A DNA stretch of 62,594 bases, the filler included, from Perkinsus olseni (taxonomy: Eukaryota), in assembly GCA_013115125.1 (NCBI GenBank). It is 3 parts of 3 records of this genome, joined end to end, with 100 filler letters (N's around TTAATTAATTAA, not from the genome) between each part and the next. Parts side by side here need not be neighbours in the genome. Positions count along the whole stretch, not along the records: positions 41,815 to 62,594 come from JABANN010000570.1; 2 more parts are not named here. One strand, 5' to 3'. Position numbers and translations under genes: made by a program. Positions 52,638 through 62,594 of the stretch are shown in pieces (position 1 is the stretch's first letter; each line of letters begins with the position of its first letter). The notes under the pieces were generated by a model. It was not told where the DNA came from and did no database searches. It saw only the letters and a program-made list of their open reading frames with translations.

Positions 52638-55600
52638 ATGCCTCGAGGGTCCTCACGAAGAGACCGTCATTACAGGAGTCCATCTCCAAGGGGGAGGACG
52701 AGAGGGAATAGAGGAAGCGATAGAGACTCTAACTACCGGGATGATCATCGCAGGGACGACCGATCCCGAAGAGGTGGTAGTGGTGGGGCGGGAAAGGGTG
52801 CGTTTGTTGATCGAGAGGTGTCTGGTTCGAATCTCGTGTGCGGATCCAACTTCGGTTAAATTTTCGCCTTATTTGCCTAGTACAGGACGTGGGCCTTTAA
52901 CAGGTGCCGGAGGCCACAGGGGCCGCATGGCGAGTAGGTCGCGGTCTCGGTCACACGACAAGTCTCGGCTACACGAGAAGGCCCCACCACCGCCCCCTGC
53001 TGAAGAGGAGGAGCTGCCTCCTCCCGCTGCTGACGCCGTTGATGACGGGTCGGACGGTGAACTGCCGTTCCCATACAATCAGATGGGTAACAGCGGTGTT
53101 AGTGATGATGATGAGGATCCTCTGGGTTATGGAGATGATTCTCCGACCAGTGGCGGTCCTGAAGGGGAGGGCCAAGCTAAGGAGGGTATAGACGGGAGGA
53201 GGGGCGTTGCTGCTGGTGACGCCTTAGCCCTTCAGAGAACTCAGCGAGTAAGGCCGAGGACAACACCCCTTGGTGGCAGCGCTTCCATCCGGCTAAGCCG
53301 CCTCCGCCCAAACCGGAAGGCATGAATGATGACGATATGGCAGCTCAGTTCGGGTAGGGAGAAGCGTTTGGGGCCGGAAGACTGTGAGTTGGGTAGTAGG
53401 TATGGTGACGATGATGATGATCTCACTGCGGCCTTTGGGGGAGGACCTTCAACGACAGCGCCACCGTCGGTTACAGCAGCGACCTGGGGAAGTGCGCAGT
53501 AGGAAGATTCTTGGGGAGGAATCTTTGCTCTAGTCACGGACCTTTGATAGATACGCAGGACAGCAGCAGCCTTGGGGGCAGCCAGCTGGCCAGCCAGGGA
53601 ACCCAACGTAAGGAGGGTTAGGAAAGTATCCTTTATTTTGTATCTAGCAGGTTTCAACCTCGCCAGATGAATGCTCCCCTACCGCCGCAGTTCCCCCCAC
53701 CCCCACCAGTTGCCGGTAGTAAACTCCCAGCGGGAGGGGTGGCTCGACTGAGCGGATCTGATGTAGGTGCCGGAGGATATGGACAACAACAGCAGCCTCC
53801 ACCACCCCCTCCGAGAGCGCCGCCGCCTAGCACTCTGGTAGGGGCAATTTCGTGGCGCAGTGACGGATTATGTGACGATAATCAGATACTGAGTAACATT
53901 CCTTCGGACGTGTCTCTACCGGCGTTATTCCAGCATTGCCAGAAATACGGGTAGAGGGGGCTGTGGTGGTGGTAGGGCGATGGTGGTGTTGTTCAGGGAA
54001 GTGAGCGGGGTGCACTGCAAGCTCGAGGAAGGCAATGCTACTGTAGAGTTTACGTAATAATAATCCTGAGGTCCGGTGAGAACTGCGAGTTACGATTGTT
54101 TTGGTACGTTAGTAATCGGCAGTCGGCTATAGCGATGATGGCAGAGCCCGTTTTGGGTCACCCAGAGATTCAGGTAGGGGGAAGATGTTCCGTCACCAGG
54201 GTTCGAACCCGGGTCGAGCATCGCGTATCAGGTGAAATGGCAAGTCACCAACCTACCGGCTGGTGCGCCCTCAGTGATGCCCCAAATGAGCGGACCTGGA
54301 GGTATTAACGATCGGGGTCGAAGCTTGCTGTGGGGGGAAATAATGACGTCGTGCTGATGATGTTAGGTGCTTCTCCGGGTGGTGGGAGACAGGGCGGAGG
54401 GGGCCGAGGTGGGTATCGTGAAGGTGGAGGGAAGGGTAGTAGGGGTGAGGGTAGGGTGATGTGGATGGCTGCAGTTTAGGGTTCCGACAGCAACAGCCTC
54501 GGCATGCTGGTAATTTAGTATTGGAGAATGCTGAGCATCAGCATCAACGGGCGGTAGGTGGTGGTGGGTGGTGTCCTGATGGTTATGGATGGTGTCAGGC
54601 GAGGGAGGCTAAGCAAGCACAGGAGATGCAGCGGGTAGCAGTCCTGTCTAGGATGTCAGAAACTGTTAAACAGTTGCTGTCTAAGCTGACTGATGAGAAG
54701 TAGTACCAAGAGAAGGGGGAGGAGTGGTACTGTGTAGAGGGCTTTGAACGAGCGGGGGTTGACGAGGATGTTGGGGATGAGTTGGCTGTTGTTAGGACGT
54801 CAGAGGCACAGAGGGAGATGTATAAGAAGATGCTGGGTGAGTTGGGAGGAGAGGAGGTCGTGGGTTCGAGTCCTGGGGGTGGCATACTGTTCTCTGTCTC
54901 TATCAGAGAAAGTGAAGGAGCAAATGCATGCGCTGTCGGAGGACATGCAAAAGGAGAAGGCTGAGAAGGCTAAGGTAGGAGGGACGAGGTCTCGTGTTCA
55001 AATCCCGGTCGAGGTGTTTTGCCAGGAATTTTACCGGTCGTGCTTTCAGGCTCGCGATGCAGCCATTCGAGCACGGTATGCGGGCATGCAAGCGCTCCAG
55101 AAGAATCAGTCGAAGGAGGTACTGATAACTTGCTTATCTTGCACATCTTGCCATTCCTCAACGCTTTCAGTCTCAAGATCGGATGACATTGGACAATCGG
55201 CCAAGAGCAGTGCTACTGGAGGAGATGGACTCGGACTTTGATTCCGTCCCTGTTGTGATGGAGTATTTCAGGGTGAGTTGCGGGAAAGTTGGTATGGTGT
55301 AGCACGTATGCACACGATTTGCAGGTCCTTGACGTTAAGGGTGTTCGCGATTTCATCTGGAGGGAGGATAGTTGCATCGTACGGTTCGAGAGCCGTTGGG
55401 CCGCGGAGGAGTTTGTCAAACAGTCAACTAAATACCCCTTCAAATGGTAGTAGTACCAAGCAGGAGTGGAGGAGGCGCGGGGAATCATTGAGAATTTGAG
55501 ACGCTCCGAAAGGGTGATTTGATAAAGGCTGTCCTGACCGACCGTAGGATGGCCTGTCGAGTTGTCCGTGGAGAGCTGCTAGGCATGAATCGTGGTTCTG

Positions 55601-55957: not shown

Positions 55958-56732
55958 TAGCGGCTTAGACGTAGTTCACGATCACAATCGTCGTCGTACC
56001 GAACTTGTAACTGAGATCCTTTCTATTTCTGTTATGCTTTTGTGTTGAAGTGCATGACTAGAGGGAGTGCTAGTCACGGTTTCCTGGTCGACTGCTGGCG
56101 TAGAGGCTCTTCGAGGTATTTAGGAGGGCTCATGCTGTGCTCACGGGGGCAATTGATGCCCTTCTTGTTTGCTTTGTGGCAACAGTGGACTCTGTTGTAG
56201 AAAGAGGGGACATGGATTTGGCGAAGGAGTGGTACGGGGCGGGTCCTTGACTTGATCTTAGTCGAGCTACCTTGGAGAGGGGAAAGGACTATTCTTCATC
56301 ACAACAGTGGTCCTTGACATGGTAGTGTAGTTTTTCTAATGCGGAGTAGTAGAGGCACAGCAGCAGGAGGAGGAGGGACGGCTCTGTCGCGGCAGTCGTC
56401 ACCATCATCATCAGTAGCGGACTCAGCCTCGAGTGAATGGATTTTGATGAGCTCCCGGACGAGGGAGAGGAAGGAAAAAAAGATGGAAAAAGCTGTTTTA
56501 ACGGGGTGGAAAATTCGGACCCAAAAAGAGCGGGAAATTTTCGAGGTACTTGTCGTCGTTGTTACTTCCCTATGGACAGCCCATGTGATGCTGAGGGCAG
56601 TGAGGATGACCTTCTCAGGCTTATCTGGAGTCCACTGATCTTAAGAAACTTCGAGTGCCGATTGATCGTTTGTTCGAGCGTGCGGTCCCCTCCGCTACCT
56701 CATCAGCCCTCTCTCGATCGTTTGATCGGTAT

Positions 56733-57051: not shown

Positions 57052-57279
57052 GATTTCTTTTCCTGTGTCCTGTATAAGAGTAGATCTTACAGTCATTTGT
57101 AGCGAGTGAAAGGTTTGGTGGTGGCGGCTTGGGTTTCTAAATAATGGTATCCTCGAGCGTGCGGGAAGGTCTTCCGTTGCTGTTGAGAACGGGGATGCCT
57201 TGAGAGCTCTGTAGTGTCAGGGGGAGTGGGCGTGACTCGTAGCATCACTGCGTTTCCCTGGAGGTTTTGATTCTCTCGG

Positions 57280-59217
57280 ATGGTTGACCGGCAGAAGTTC
57301 TTGGAGGAGGTGGAGTCGATCAAGACCTTGTGTGCAGGGGAGAGGTACTCTGGAGGATGGAAGAGGCTGCTGGCGCTGGGGAAAATGCCGGAGGCGCGGA
57401 TCGAACCTGCGCGGATCATCTTGGAACAGCTTCGAGAACGGCTCCGTCATGACAGCGTGGATGAGTGGCACCTTCGAATGCTCAACGATGGTGGTAGGAA
57501 TCGAGCCTACCGGAGAGCGATAGTCAAAGCGATTCGGGACAGAGGGGAGGAAATCGATCACGTGATCGATGTTGGTTGCGGGACGGGTATACTGAGCTGT
57601 TACCTGGCAGAGTGCGCACCCCCGAAAACGAAAATAACGGCATGTGACTGTAGTTGGGCAATTTGCGAGGTGGCAAGGCGGGCGTGTGGCTCTCGAGTAG
57701 ATGTCGTGCAAGTTGATTCTGCCGATCTGGCGCTGGAGACGCCAGCGGACATGGTCGTAGCGGAGCTGATGGATTGTGCGTTGTTGGGGGAGGGGTTTGT
57801 GGACGTCGTGAAGGATTTGAGATCTCGAGGGCAGATGAAGGAAGAGGCCGTGGTGATTCCGGAGTGTGGTCGAGTCTTTGGTTGCGTTGTTGAGTCGGAG
57901 GCGATACGCGATCGAGGTTACTACTTCAGTGAGAGTGTTCGTCTGGAGGAGGCTTATGCAAGCGTGCACAAGAGTGAGGGGCTTCGATATAGGAAGCTGA
58001 CGGATACCTTTACGGTATGTACAGCTGACTTCAGGAGGGGGGAGATAGGGGGGCTTGGTCGGAGGGAGGTGGAGGTCCGGGAAGGAGGATTGTGTGCATG
58101 CGTGCTGGTGTGGTGGGAGGCCACGCTGTACGGTGATATTAGGATTGATAGCGTTGTCGACTGCGACTGGGATTATGCAGTGTTCCCGTGCCCTCCAAGG
58201 GAGGTTGAGAAGGGGCAGAAGATGGGCGTTAGAGTGTCGTGTGAGGACTCTAAGCTTTCCGTGACTTTTGATGGCTCTTATGTGACGGGGGCACCTGGGG
58301 TCTCCGAGTTCGATATTATGACCGCCAGTCGTATAAGAAGGGAGGGATATGCCGGGATTCGATCCGGAGGCCTTTCGAATGATGGTGTGGTGATTGATCT
58401 CACTGGAGTAGGTCACTCGGTCATTCCGTGTCTGCTCGCCAACGGCTGTCGGGGTCCATTTGTATCGTGGATGCCGAGGGAAGGCGACGGCCTGTGGTCC
58501 ATCTTGAGAGACCAACTTGAGCACTTCCGCATCTTCCCCGAGGACTTCGCCAAAAGTGTCCGAGTGGTCGAGGCGGACTCGCAACAAGAGTTCTTCGAAG
58601 AGGTCCTGCATGTCGGCATGCTGCAGCGGTACCACCTTGGGGAGGTCATCCGTCAACCGGTTCTCCCCTGGGGAGCAATTGATGCTGAATCGTTGAAGTT
58701 GGTATCGATGTTGAGCGAAAGAGTTGGTATCAGTCCGACGAGGGTGTTACACTGTAAGGGCTGCTGGACCACGAGCGCGGCAGTGAGGGCAGCATCGGAA
58801 GTGGAGGAGGGGACTGTGCCGGAGGCCATCAGGGATGAGGCCAATCGTGGGGAGCTGCTCAGAGTGGGAAGGTTGATGGACTTCCCATTGGAAGACCTGA
58901 ACACAGTGGGAGAGGCTGTGCCTTTGTTTATTATCGATTTCCTCAGTCGGGAGTTTCGCATGGAGGGTTGTTCAACTCGGGAGGAAGGCGGGTTTCTATT
59001 TGGCAGGATCCCGGTTCGAATCCCCGAGGGGGCTACGGGTTTGGTATTGCTGTACACCCCTTCGCCTCTGCCGAGTACTGGTCGCTGCGTGATTCCCTAC
59101 AGAGGGGTTGGTGGAGAAGGGGAAATCAGGATAACGTGCAGACCTGGGTCGGATCTTACCACGCTGACTTTGCCGTGGATCGAGCTTGTCAGCAGCAGTA
59201 GTCGGGACGGTTCATGA
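57280..59217 (+). CDS. Protein arginine methyltransferase, PRMT9/PRMT7-like, intronless
   Basis: WHLRMLND..RNRAYRRAI, VIDVGCGTGILS, double-E loop ELMDCALLGEG, and LVWWE; followed by a degenerate second methyltransferase module. Confidence 0.85.
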   Translation: MVDRQKFLEEVESIKTLCAGERYSGGWKRLLALGKMPEARIEPARIILEQLRERLRHDSVDEWHLRMLNDGGRNRAYRRAIVKAIRDRGEEIDHVIDVGCGTGILSCYLAECAPPKTKITACDCSWAICEVARRACGSRVDVVQVDSADLALETPADMVVAELMDCALLGEGFVDVVKDLRSRGQMKEEAVVIPECGRVFGCVVESEAIRDRGYYFSESVRLEEAYASVHKSEGLRYRKLTDTFTVCTADFRRGEIGGLGRREVEVREGGLCACVLVWWEATLYGDIRIDSVVDCDWDYAVFPCPPREVEKGQKMGVRVSCEDSKLSVTFDGSYVTGAPGVSEFDIMTASRIRREGYAGIRSGGLSNDGVVIDLTGVGHSVIPCLLANGCRGPFVSWMPREGDGLWSILRDQLEHFRIFPEDFAKSVRVVEADSQQEFFEEVLHVGMLQRYHLGEVIRQPVLPWGAIDAESLKLVSMLSERVGISPTRVLHCKGCWTTSAAVRAASEVEEGTVPEAIRDEANRGELLRVGRLMDFPLEDLNTVGEAVPLFIIDFLSREFRMEGCSTREEGGFLFGRIPVRIPEGATGLVLLYTPSPLPSTGRCVIPYRGVGGEGEIRITCRPGSDLTTLTLPWIELVSSSSRDGS

Positions 59218-59370
59218 AGGCCGACGTGCCTACCCCTGCTGACCCTAGGACGAGGAGCACGTGCCACCGGTGGGAGAGTGAGCTTGTTGTGGATCGAGTG
59301 GAGATCGTTTCCTAGGAAGCTGAGTTGTGTCCCAGCGATGTTTTTCTGGAAGCTTTCCTTATACATCGTT

Positions 59371-59455
59371 ACCGTAGCCATCTTGGCTGAAGGTAAATAT
59401 CAGGTCTGCTGGCTAGGCTGCAGCCGGAAGGTCCTAGCGATGTAACCGTTGCAGC
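59371..59455 (+). ncRNA. Spliced-leader (SL) RNA gene or SL-RNA-derived copy; SL exon 59371-59392, 3' end uncertain
   Basis: ACCGTAGCCATCTTGGCTGAAG matches the 22-nt Perkinsus SL as I recall it (ACCGTAGCCATCTTGGCTCAAG) at 21/22 positions. It is immediately followed by a GTAAAT splice donor. Confidence 0.75.
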
Positions 59456-59511
59456 ATTTCCCTCATTCTACACCCTACAGTGTTTGTATTATTTTTCCTT
59501 ACCATCCTTCC

Positions 59512-61300
59512 ATGCTCTCTCGTGGTGGCGGTCACTTGTTTTCTCGACCGCTGTTATCTTCAGTAGCTCTTCATTGGTCTCGAGGCATCGCTCTGCCAGC
59601 GGCAGCAGCAGCCTCGCAGGGGGGCCTAGTGGACCAGTGGGCGGTGGAGGGCGACGTACCGCAACAAACTTTGAAGGACTTTGTATGCTATCTCCACTGG
59701 GGCAACTGGTATCACGTGCTGCTCAGGTATTCTCCGGGCTGGCTAAGAGGCAGGTAGAAAGTCTGTGTCCTAAGGAGTTCTCCCCGCAGAAGCAGTAGGG
59801 GTGGTGGTGGGCATCTCCTCGAGCCAGCGTGGGTTCAGATACTTTGACCAGTACTTGCCGGAGGGCAGCAAGCAAGCGTTGAAGGCTTTGGTGAGGAGGG
59901 GGTTGGGAGTGGCTAGGTGGAGATCTGCGGTGGGGGTTGTTGTGGCAGGCCAGCGAGGTCACGTCGGAGCGGATGTCTGACCCTCGGTATGTTGAGACGA
60001 TTGAAGAGTCCTTGATGGAGGCTATTAATGAAGGGAGGAAGATACGAAAGGTGAAAGTTGCGGTGAAGAAGTGGTATGGAACCTTACTAGCACTGAGTAT
60101 TAACTTTTAGAAGTTCTACAGTCGGCTGTGATCGTGATGTAGGGTGGGAGTGGTGGCGCAGTAGTAGTGCCATCATAACCGTCACCAAGGCTGGTCTGAT
60201 TCACTTCGTCGTATCAACCACGGGTCGCGGACGAGTCATGGGTTGCAAAGCTGTAGAGGAATTGATACCACTATGAGCGTTGGTGCTGCCTCTCTGTACT
60301 GTGAGACCATCATCGTGGACGGAGGGGTAGAACTTGGCAGGGGCAATCCTCCGATATCCAATGGCGATGGATACGCCTTGAGAACAGGGATCACCGCCCT
60401 TAGACAGCTTGTTTGCAGGAGTCTGGCTACGAGTTGGAAGTGGAGATTCTTGACATCCCCAAGGTCAGCATACAGCGGGTTAACCTGGTCGTTGGAGGCT
60501 CACGCCGATTGAATAAGGACTTCTTCAAGGGGAAGTGAGTGCTGGGGTATAGCAAAGCACTGCTATCTCGTTCGCCAAATTCCACCCCATCCTATAATAA
60601 AGTGCCAAAGGAGGGGTATCAGACGTTGCGTGTGGTATCAGAGCTTGAGGAGGCCTTTTGCGAATATTGAATCATGATGCTGTTGTTGCTGGTTAGGATG
60701 CTGGTGAATCCGGTATTGATGCCGCAGCTGTATGTAGTTCTGTCAGAAGATCAGCTTGAGCGGAGCGGAGGCCAATTTTCGTAGGAATACCGCAGCTGCT
60801 TCTCCTCCTCAATGCCCTTCCCCTCCTCAGTCCCTTCATGGACATCTTCAACACCACCATTGGCTGCGGAGCCGCTGTCTTGGTCGACGTTCGAGTGAGG
60901 CCGGCCTGCAGCCCCTCCCTGGCCCCTCGAGTACCCTTCCTGTCAGATGGAATGCCAGCAACGATATTGTGTGAGAGGCCTGCCTGAGGAAGCTGATGCC
61001 GCACCAGCCGAGGAGACTGCTGTTCACGAGATTAGGATGGAGATGACGCTGAATCGTTAGGGTCCACTTGAGCGCAGTCCGCATCGTGACGATTGCTTCT
61101 GTTAGCGATACCCGGCAGCGGCAGCTACCCGGTGGACGGTCGATTCACGGGAGGGCATTGGCAGGTTACTGACTTCAATCGGGTTCTTAATGTGAGCATC
61201 TGTGGGTGGTGATAGTACGGGCTAGCTTTGCTGAGGTCGAATAGGTGGTGATGTAAAGGTTGAGTGATGTGCGTAGAAGCTAGTTCGGTTTACCAATTGC
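59512..61300 (+). CDS. Multi-exon hypothetical protein with mitochondrial-presequence-like N-terminus (3' end approximate)
   Basis: MLSRGGGHLFSRPLLSSVALHWSRGIA... is R/S/L-rich and lacks acidic residues; GT/AG-bounded exons follow. Confidence 0.45.
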
Positions 61301-61902
61301 ATGCATTTGATGGAGTTTTGCTGTCGCTGATGGAGGGCCTGGAGTAGTGTTCTTAGGGTAACTTCCCCATTCCTCTGCCCCTTCTCAATCGTGAGTCCTT
61401 CGACGCGGGTACGTACAAAAGTCCGGGGGCCGGTGGAGAGAGTCGGGCGGGGAGGGAGAAGATAACTGATTGGCCTGATACTGATGAGAGCAGTAGCAGC
61501 AGCAAGCAGCGTTAAGCTGGCAACAACAGCAGCAGCAACATCTGTTCCATATTATCGTTTCACTCCTGATCGGCAGCGGCGTTTTCAATCCCGTCCACTT
61601 TTTTGGCTGGGTAGGTTGGCCTTCATACGACCTCTATCACGATCGAAAGAAGCGGTGTAGAAGAGCTCGGCTTAACTCCTGTTGTCCTCCGGAGAATTCT
61701 GTTTTCTTGTCTCCACGTCTGTGGCTGCTAGCGGGCCGCTGCTGGTTTGGTCTAGCTGTATAGCGCGACCAAGAAGAGGAGGAGGCCTGGGGCGATTGAC
61801 GTTCCCGAAAGAGAAAAAAAAGTTCTTCACGTCGCGATGCCAAAGGGAACAGCGTTGGGTTTTGCGCATGCTATGCTGTTGGCATCAGATTGTTTTACCA
61901 GC

Positions 61903-62594
61903 ATGCATCCGCTGAGTCGGCCTGGGCCAGCTCTCCTTCGCTCGGGCATTCGCGATGTCCCTGCCCTGTGTGGCCAGATCCGTCATTTCGCGGGAGTGCA
62001 GGGCACCATGGGGTCCTACGCTAAGGCCTTCCGATGGGGGTCTCAGAGAAAGAAGGGCCGATGGTAGTGCGGAGGAAAAGAAGTATAACATCGCTGGTAG
62101 TTGTTATTGCGGCGCCAGCAGCGTGCGAGTACAGTACGATGTGAGGAGGTCGACCGCTCAGCGCCCAATGCCCAAAAGTTTACGAATTAACTTTGAAAAT
62201 CCAAAAATTTTTCCGAAAATTTCTCAGTACTGGTTGCTCCTCGACCAAATAGGAGTGATTAGTATGGAAGTGCCTGACTGCGGATGTGTAGGTATTATCG
62301 ATACCACAAGCCTCTCGGTCATGGTAACTGGCAGAAGTACATTGAACGGTATGAGACGCCGAGAGAACTGGAGTCAAGGCAGAGACTGGTCTTCTCGACA
62401 CGAGCTGATTACAGGACGTAGTTGCTGCAGTGGCGTAGTAGAGCAGGAAGGGTGGGGTTAGGTACAAGCAGGCCATCAGTTGGCAATGGAAGCTCCCAAA
62501 GGCGATAGCAGAGGCCACTACGGTTGATGAGGTACCTCCGTCACGGGGTAGGGGCTGAGGCTGGGTCTTGGGAAATCGCCAGGTCCTGGATGCG
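61903..62594 (+). CDS. Probable mitochondrial protein, 5' part (runs off window)
   Basis: Spliced reading MHPLSRPGPALLRS...QIRHFAG...RKKGRW|YYRYHKPLGHGNWQKYIERYETPRE...DYRT|YKQAISWQWKLPK, with a presequence-like start. Confidence 0.5.

Follow-up and report, generated by a model that had tools for sequence, protein, structure and literature searches.

The window, i.e. the whole stretch of Perkinsus olseni DNA that was analysed (62,594 nucleotides, filler included), carries between positions 55500 and 62594 at least four or five tightly packed co-directional genes, an arrangement deduced from the 15 introns listed near the element described below, all of which are of the GT..AG type, lie on the + strand and measure 44-368 nt. 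Ten of these 15 confirmed introns have lengths of 44-58 nt, three of them measuring exactly 44 nt, this class of short introns including 59683-59726, 59795-59838 and 62418-62461. The gene upstream of the spacer of interest (57280-59217, + strand) has no intron in the stretch and encodes a class I SAM-methyltransferase domain (PF13649, E 8.7e-10); its open reading frame spans 57271-59217, is covered by contigs without joints and ends on a TGA at 59215-59217, 153 nt before the spliced leader (SL)-like exon. The downstream gene (59481-61845, + strand) is composed of 10 exons and 9 GT..AG introns, whose joints are present in three RNA-type runs (X7, X8 and X14). This RNA evidence consists of assembled Logan contigs, which show presence and not absence, drop rare variants and give no RNA starts, ends or levels; X7 and X8 were only guessed to be RNA, and the spliced joints show RNA in both.

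The 5' UTR of the downstream gene (59481-59511) is a T/C-rich stretch of 31 nt leading to the first ATG at 59512, and the ten joined exons, read from 59481, form a single open frame of about 345 codons that ends in exon 10. The joints and this continuous frame establish as real both the 59480 acceptor and the 59512 ATG, first proposed from the DNA alone. Judged by eye, the N-terminus of the predicted protein seems to resemble a targeting presequence. A Pfam search with the stretches 59512-59727, 59774-59889 and 59895-60107, picked before the joints were known and overlapping introns, returned 0 families. Two side observations concern the contigs over these genes. The 368-nt intron 60051-60418, removed in the main contigs, is still present in an X7 contig (60022-60446, depth 15); this is intron retention, pre-mRNA or DNA, and unspliced material is present in X7. 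At 57920, in the methyltransferase gene, one low-depth X8 contig (depth 2.9) has a single A>T, which might come from strain variation or be erroneous.

The spacer between both genes contains the 22-nt SL-like exon ACCGTAGCCATCTTGGCTGAAG (59371-59392, + strand), immediately followed on its 3' side by GTAAAT, the donor context at 59392/59393 being AAG/GTAAAT. Since CCCTACAG terminates at 59480, the interval from exon to acceptor (59393-59480) amounts to 88 nt. The succession of SL exon, GT donor, AG acceptor 88 nt further on and ATG at 59512 is therefore as the earlier note had described it, and so is the single occurrence of the exon in the window: the 22-mer was found once with up to 3 mismatches allowed, 0 of 100 dinucleotide-preserving shuffles matched, and a looser 12-mer search of the window returned only a single unrelated site with 1 mismatch. 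Compared with the L-type leader of Perkinsus, the exon is identical at 21 of 22 positions, the sole difference being a C>G at position 19 (59389). In P. marinus, PmaSL1 is the same 22-mer with a C at position 19 (PMC3101222), which bears out both the leader sequence given in the earlier note and the lone variant base; PmaSL2 is a 21-nt leader form (PMC3101222; repeated in PMC9399869). The G at 59389 holds as a variant marker in all contig pieces that span the site, namely records 7 and 8 of the DNA run X3 and record 17 of X7, each of which agrees with the window with 0 other letters; as the window itself may derive from X3, the support of that run for the G is not independent. An Sm-like motif, ATCTTGG (59380-59386), is intact inside the exon. 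It had been remarked that no clear U-rich Sm site follows the donor, and this agrees with the literature, as the only candidate Sm site of Perkinsus and dinoflagellates sits inside the SL exon (PMC3101222).

Likeness to SL RNA genes extends beyond the exon. Three P. marinus SL 3'-RACE primers that run from exon into intron (Table 1 of PMC3101222) were compared with the window across the exon-intron junction: the degenerate PmaSL-LS-F2 matches at 25 of 28 positions, with C19G as one of the mismatches, the L-type primer LNF3 at 22/26 and the S-type primer S2F3 at 21/26; the local GT donor junction matches the S-type junction of the published primers. In run X3, the summed contig depth reaches 40,345 in the bin of the element and about 99 in other bins, and 60-nt contigs placed on 59371-59432 show 5 other letters, i.e. 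about 55/60 matching. On these sequence grounds, the element belongs as a diverged copy to the SL RNA genes, a very high-copy family. It is the homology running 40 nt past the donor (GT donor and first 40 nt of the SL-RNA intron, 59393-59432, + strand, delimited from the published primers and X3 contigs) that identifies a copy of the SL RNA gene, as the earlier note had supposed, and that rules out a relic left by mRNA retroposition, which would have no SL intron behind its exon; that candidate was rejected on this count and on the 9 introns of the neighbouring gene.

The homology stops at 59432. The contigs of the high-copy family depart from the window at 59431/59432 into a different sequence (X3, with the same continuation in X7) of about 25 nt with a final C-T5-G; an RNA ending there would come to about the 80-83 nt known from publications. 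This T-run is the poly-T termination element, of the form CT4-7G/A (PMC9399869), described at the 3' end of Perkinsus and dinoflagellate SL RNAs (PMC3101222 and PMC9399869). The 62 nt from 59371 to 59432 are thus all that is homologous to the 80-83-nt SL RNA, and the family's 3' part of about 25 nt, with its CT5G terminator, has no counterpart in the window before the acceptor. Indeed, a 30-nt family tail compared with 59425-59520 gave no significant match (219 of 1000 shuffles scored equally well), and a residual likeness of this tail (ACCCT...TTTGTAT) to the window near the acceptor was discarded as not significant. The next run of at least four T after the element is a T5 at 59492-59496, within the 5' UTR of the downstream gene. 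On the upstream side, two family contigs read CCCTATAG before 59368 and the window differs, with mismatches beyond -3. The homologous block therefore extends from about 59368 to 59432 and comprises the exon and 40 nt of intron, without the upstream flank or the 3' end of the family; it is followed by a 48-nt spacer without SL RNA 3' homology (59433-59480, + strand) that ends in the acceptor AG (59479-59480).

A direct repeat surrounds the element. Its left copy, GTCC[C/T]AGCGATGT, lies at 59329-59341 and its right copy at 59431-59443 (both on the + strand, 12/13 identical, found by repeat search), the latter beginning exactly at the breakpoint of the SL family homology. The left copy is located 29 nt upstream of the exon, in sequence unlike the flank of two family contigs, and is directly followed on its 3' side by a T5 run. 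When 5000 places of the window were drawn at random, 55 (about 1.1%) showed an equal or better repeat, in what was a post hoc test. The repeat hints at a target-site duplication of an insertion of about 89 nt and is offered as a lead only; under such an insertion, an empty site is expected to carry the unit singly, as GTCCNAGCGATGT.

Other scans of the locus were negative. Rfam gave no family at gathering score over the whole window and two chance-level matches only (E 0.89 and 2.4) over 58000-61000; the predicted RNA fold of 59371-59500 is no more stable than shuffles (z -0.16); and a promoter and terminator scan of 59200-59560 found nothing with bacterial-type models, which are not suited to a eukaryote. 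In a metagenome scan for the exon followed by GTA, one contig (L001, 401-470 and 690-763) was found with the exact 22-nt C-type Perkinsus leader and a GT donor. Its intron is unrelated to that of the window and much shorter, ending in T5 about 55 nt from the start, and was for this reason rejected as a yardstick for the SL intron studied here. About 220 nt farther downstream the contig has a tRNA-Asn(GTT) gene, and the leader locus might represent the SL RNA gene of a relative not yet sampled.

The base at position 19 distinguishes a leader supplied by the local exon from one supplied by canonical SL RNA genes. Two contigs from two studies read into the leader at the 59480 acceptor, the letters before 59479 being TCTTGGCTCA in X7 and CTTGGCTCA in X14; the diagnostic position is a C in both, which therefore read GGCTCA(AG) and not GGCTGA(AG), the AG being common to leader and acceptor and followed by TGTTTGTATT. 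This C, in place of the local G, in both leader-bearing contigs indicates that the leader of the downstream mRNA is supplied in trans by canonical SL RNA and joined at 59480/59481. The X8 contig begins at 59484, short of the leader. The joint 59392>59481 is not listed in X7, X8 or X14, i.e. in assembled contigs that drop rare variants, unlike the 9 introns of the downstream gene, all of which are joined in each of the three runs. Cis-splicing of the local exon onto the downstream gene, one of the options put forward earlier, is thus not supported: the G-marked leader that was to reveal it is absent from both contigs that read the leader, and its joint from the three RNA-type runs. By bin-depth arithmetic, X8 and X14 contigs do not cover 59311-59478, and this uncovered part counts as no evidence.

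The same usage is seen at neighbouring acceptors. SL-bearing X7 contig ends before 56324 and before 61887 likewise read ...GCTCA, so that three trans-splice acceptors (56324-56325, 59479-59480 and 61887-61888, + strand) are recognised from contig ends in ...GCTCA before the shared AG, and all readable leaders in the stretch examined (3/3) are of the C type. The exon of the local copy is consequently not the leader found on mRNAs, with a G at position 19 locally and a C in the three readable leaders as well as in the published leaders. No obvious polypyrimidine tract was seen upstream of the three acceptors. The exons that follow start T-rich (TGTAGTTTTTC, TGTTTGTATTATTTTTCC and ATTGTTTTACC), and the T-rich stretch noticed earlier ahead of the ATG may thus reflect the way 5' UTRs generally begin in this region.

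As for the element itself, record 17 of X7 runs unbroken from 58064 to 59475, from the methyltransferase gene through the element and its donor, with a G at 59389, and is the only contig covering the element, unspliced from the upstream gene. In X7 the element thus belongs, unspliced, to a longer sequence, whether this is a 3' UTR, an outron, read-through or DNA contamination. This contig stops 5 nt before the next acceptor, and in itself could correspond to read-through, polycistronic transcription, a long 3' UTR or contaminating DNA.

Taken together, we favour, with a probability of roughly three in four, that the 5' fragment of an SL RNA gene between these two co-directional genes is inert and that the exon-intron-acceptor layout is incidental. 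A 5' fragment of about 65 nt of a Perkinsus-type SL RNA gene (59368-59432, exon and first 40 nt of intron), diverged by about 8%, sits in the spacer between two co-directional protein genes, where its position 88 nt before a trans-splice acceptor mimics an SL exon followed by its intron. The downstream pre-mRNA is trans-spliced at 59480/59481 to the C19 leader provided by the high-copy SL RNA genes, and where RNA-type contigs show the element, it is unspliced and runs on from the upstream gene. The limits of the homology, the lack of a terminator, the use of the acceptor and the C-type leader of the mRNA are direct observations; we infer that the element is a non-functional relic (pseudogene) and makes no small RNA, as we do its route of arrival. 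Counted against a relic are the exon, intact but for one base, and the intact Sm-like ATCTTGG and GT donor; furthermore, in the predicted exon hairpin, G19 would only add a U5-G19 wobble pair. Of the features of a functional SL RNA gene, the copy has the GT donor directly after the exon and the candidate Sm site in the exon, and lacks three defining ones, namely an exon identical to the leader, a conserved full-length RNA and a poly-T terminator. Among the three options listed in the earlier note (a dispersed variant SL RNA gene, a truncated pseudogene or a cis-spliced exon), the truncated pseudogene fares best, the canonical 3' part and poly-T terminator being missing.

Alternatively, the copy might be a functional variant SL RNA gene, in which a small RNA with an unusual 3' half would start at 59371 and donate the G19 leader in trans. 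The intact exon, exon-internal Sm-like site and donor speak for it, as does the coexistence of two natural leader variants in the genus (PMC3101222 and PMC9399869); moreover, it is normal in P. marinus for L-type SL RNA genes to be single and dispersed (PMC3101222), so that a solitary location is no argument against function. We nevertheless consider it unlikely: the copy is without the conserved last 25 nt or so and CT5G, the next run of at least four T already belonging to the 5' UTR of the neighbour, its upstream flank is unlike that of the family beyond -3, G is found in 0/3 readable leaders of the stretch, and the one contig over the element carries on from the upstream gene, with no start at 59371. 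Quite improbable also is a mis-assembly, in which two loci would have been mis-joined through the high-copy SL repeat and the exon and the downstream gene would not be adjacent, to the point that we give it the least credit of all. It has in its favour that the X3 assembly is interrupted within the element (record 7 extends as far as 59397 and shares 30 nt with record 8, which begins at 59368), where the repeat, or error words from the family of about 40,000x, branches the assembly graph; this break could reflect further G19 copies or equally error words of the high-copy family. However, record 17 of X7, which belongs to a different study, spans the entire element without a break (58064-59475) and with 0 other letters, and what X3 records 7 and 8 have in common is the G19 version specific to this locus, at the depth of a single copy (about 99).

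The local exon might also serve as a minor or conditional cis-spliced leader, its own transcript or a read-through RNA being spliced from 59392 to 59481, rarely or in a particular life stage, in competition with trans-splicing at that acceptor. Nothing in the sequence forbids cis use of the donor: AAG/GTAAAT is plausible and 88 nt fall within the local intron range of 44-368 nt. In addition, record 17 of X7 includes the donor and ends 5 nt short of the acceptor, and in flatworms cis- and trans-splicing commonly make use of a shared acceptor (PMC12582326). Against this, no such joint is found in 3/3 RNA-type runs, versus 9/9 introns joined in each, and both readable leaders carry C; besides, a cis form on read-through RNA would fuse the 3' end of the upstream gene and would not give a capped 22-nt leader. 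We regard such a minor form as unlikely. A related and very unlikely proposal is that the fragment is an intermediate on the way from trans to cis, in which the start of the SL intron and the end of the outron would together form a conventional-looking 88-nt intron in a trans-spliced gene, and which would provide a low-level or stage-specific G19 leader in cis, competing with the SL snRNP.

Comparison with known systems places the preferred reading, an inert fragment of an SL RNA gene, among documented cases. Like the L- and S-type SL RNA genes of P. marinus (PMC3101222), the local copy has a GT donor and an intron start (GTAAATATCAGGTC) as in the published primers, a 22-nt L-type exon (21/22 identical) and an Sm-like site in the exon, and it resembles L-type genes by its solitary, dispersed location (Zhang et al. 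2011, PMC3101222). Unlike P. marinus SL RNA genes, it has C19G, 62 of the 80-83 nt and no CT4-7G/A terminator, and its upstream flank differs from that of the high-copy SL RNA family of X3. P. marinus also has more than 100 SL-like genomic sequences without a recognisable intron and with no clear 3' RACE or RNA-blot product (PMC3101222), which makes non-functional SL copies a known feature of the genus, and dinoflagellates have SL relics that go back to the recycling of cDNAs (Slamovits and Keeling 2008, as described in PMC3101222). The local copy shares with both an SL exon beside or upstream of protein genes and no evidence of SL RNA gene function. These copies are described as having no SL intron, mostly a T start and often a tandem arrangement, whereas the local one starts with an A, is single and has kept the donor and 40 nt of intron, which traces it to an SL RNA gene, or to SL RNA before splicing, and not to a mature trans-spliced mRNA. 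In parasitic flatworms, diverged SL-RNA-like loci with negligible evidence of trans-splicing in transcriptomes were read as pseudogenes (PMC12582326); their donor is not conserved, while in the local copy the donor is intact and the 3' part is missing.

A second comparison bears on splicing. The local arrangement can be set beside outron-donor constructs of C. elegans in that a trans-splice acceptor is preceded, on its own strand, by a 5' splice site. With these constructs, Conrad et al. reportedly found in the early 1990s that a donor placed in the outron switches trans-splicing to cis-splicing. The local assembled mRNAs, unlike them, keep the trans leader, and the switch is not seen as a major form.

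For annotation, the local copy is best classed as an SL RNA pseudogene or fragment, of a kind already known, and should not be annotated as an SL RNA gene or as a 5' exon, SL-like copies occurring in Perkinsus genomes; the locus confirms three trans-splice acceptors and a 10-exon gene model. The part of the SL intron that was kept points to a route other than the mRNA recycling that explains dinoflagellate SL relics. Furthermore, the locus is a modest natural experiment, with a competent-looking donor 88 nt before a trans-splice acceptor of the same strand and assembled mRNAs that yet carry the trans leader, and the G/C marker makes cis use (GGCTGAAG-TGTTTGTATT) and trans use (GGCTCAAG-TGTTTGTATT) countable in raw reads. 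Should the intermediate between trans- and cis-splicing prove true, the locus would offer a natural read-out of the competition between cis-splicing and the SL snRNP at one acceptor.
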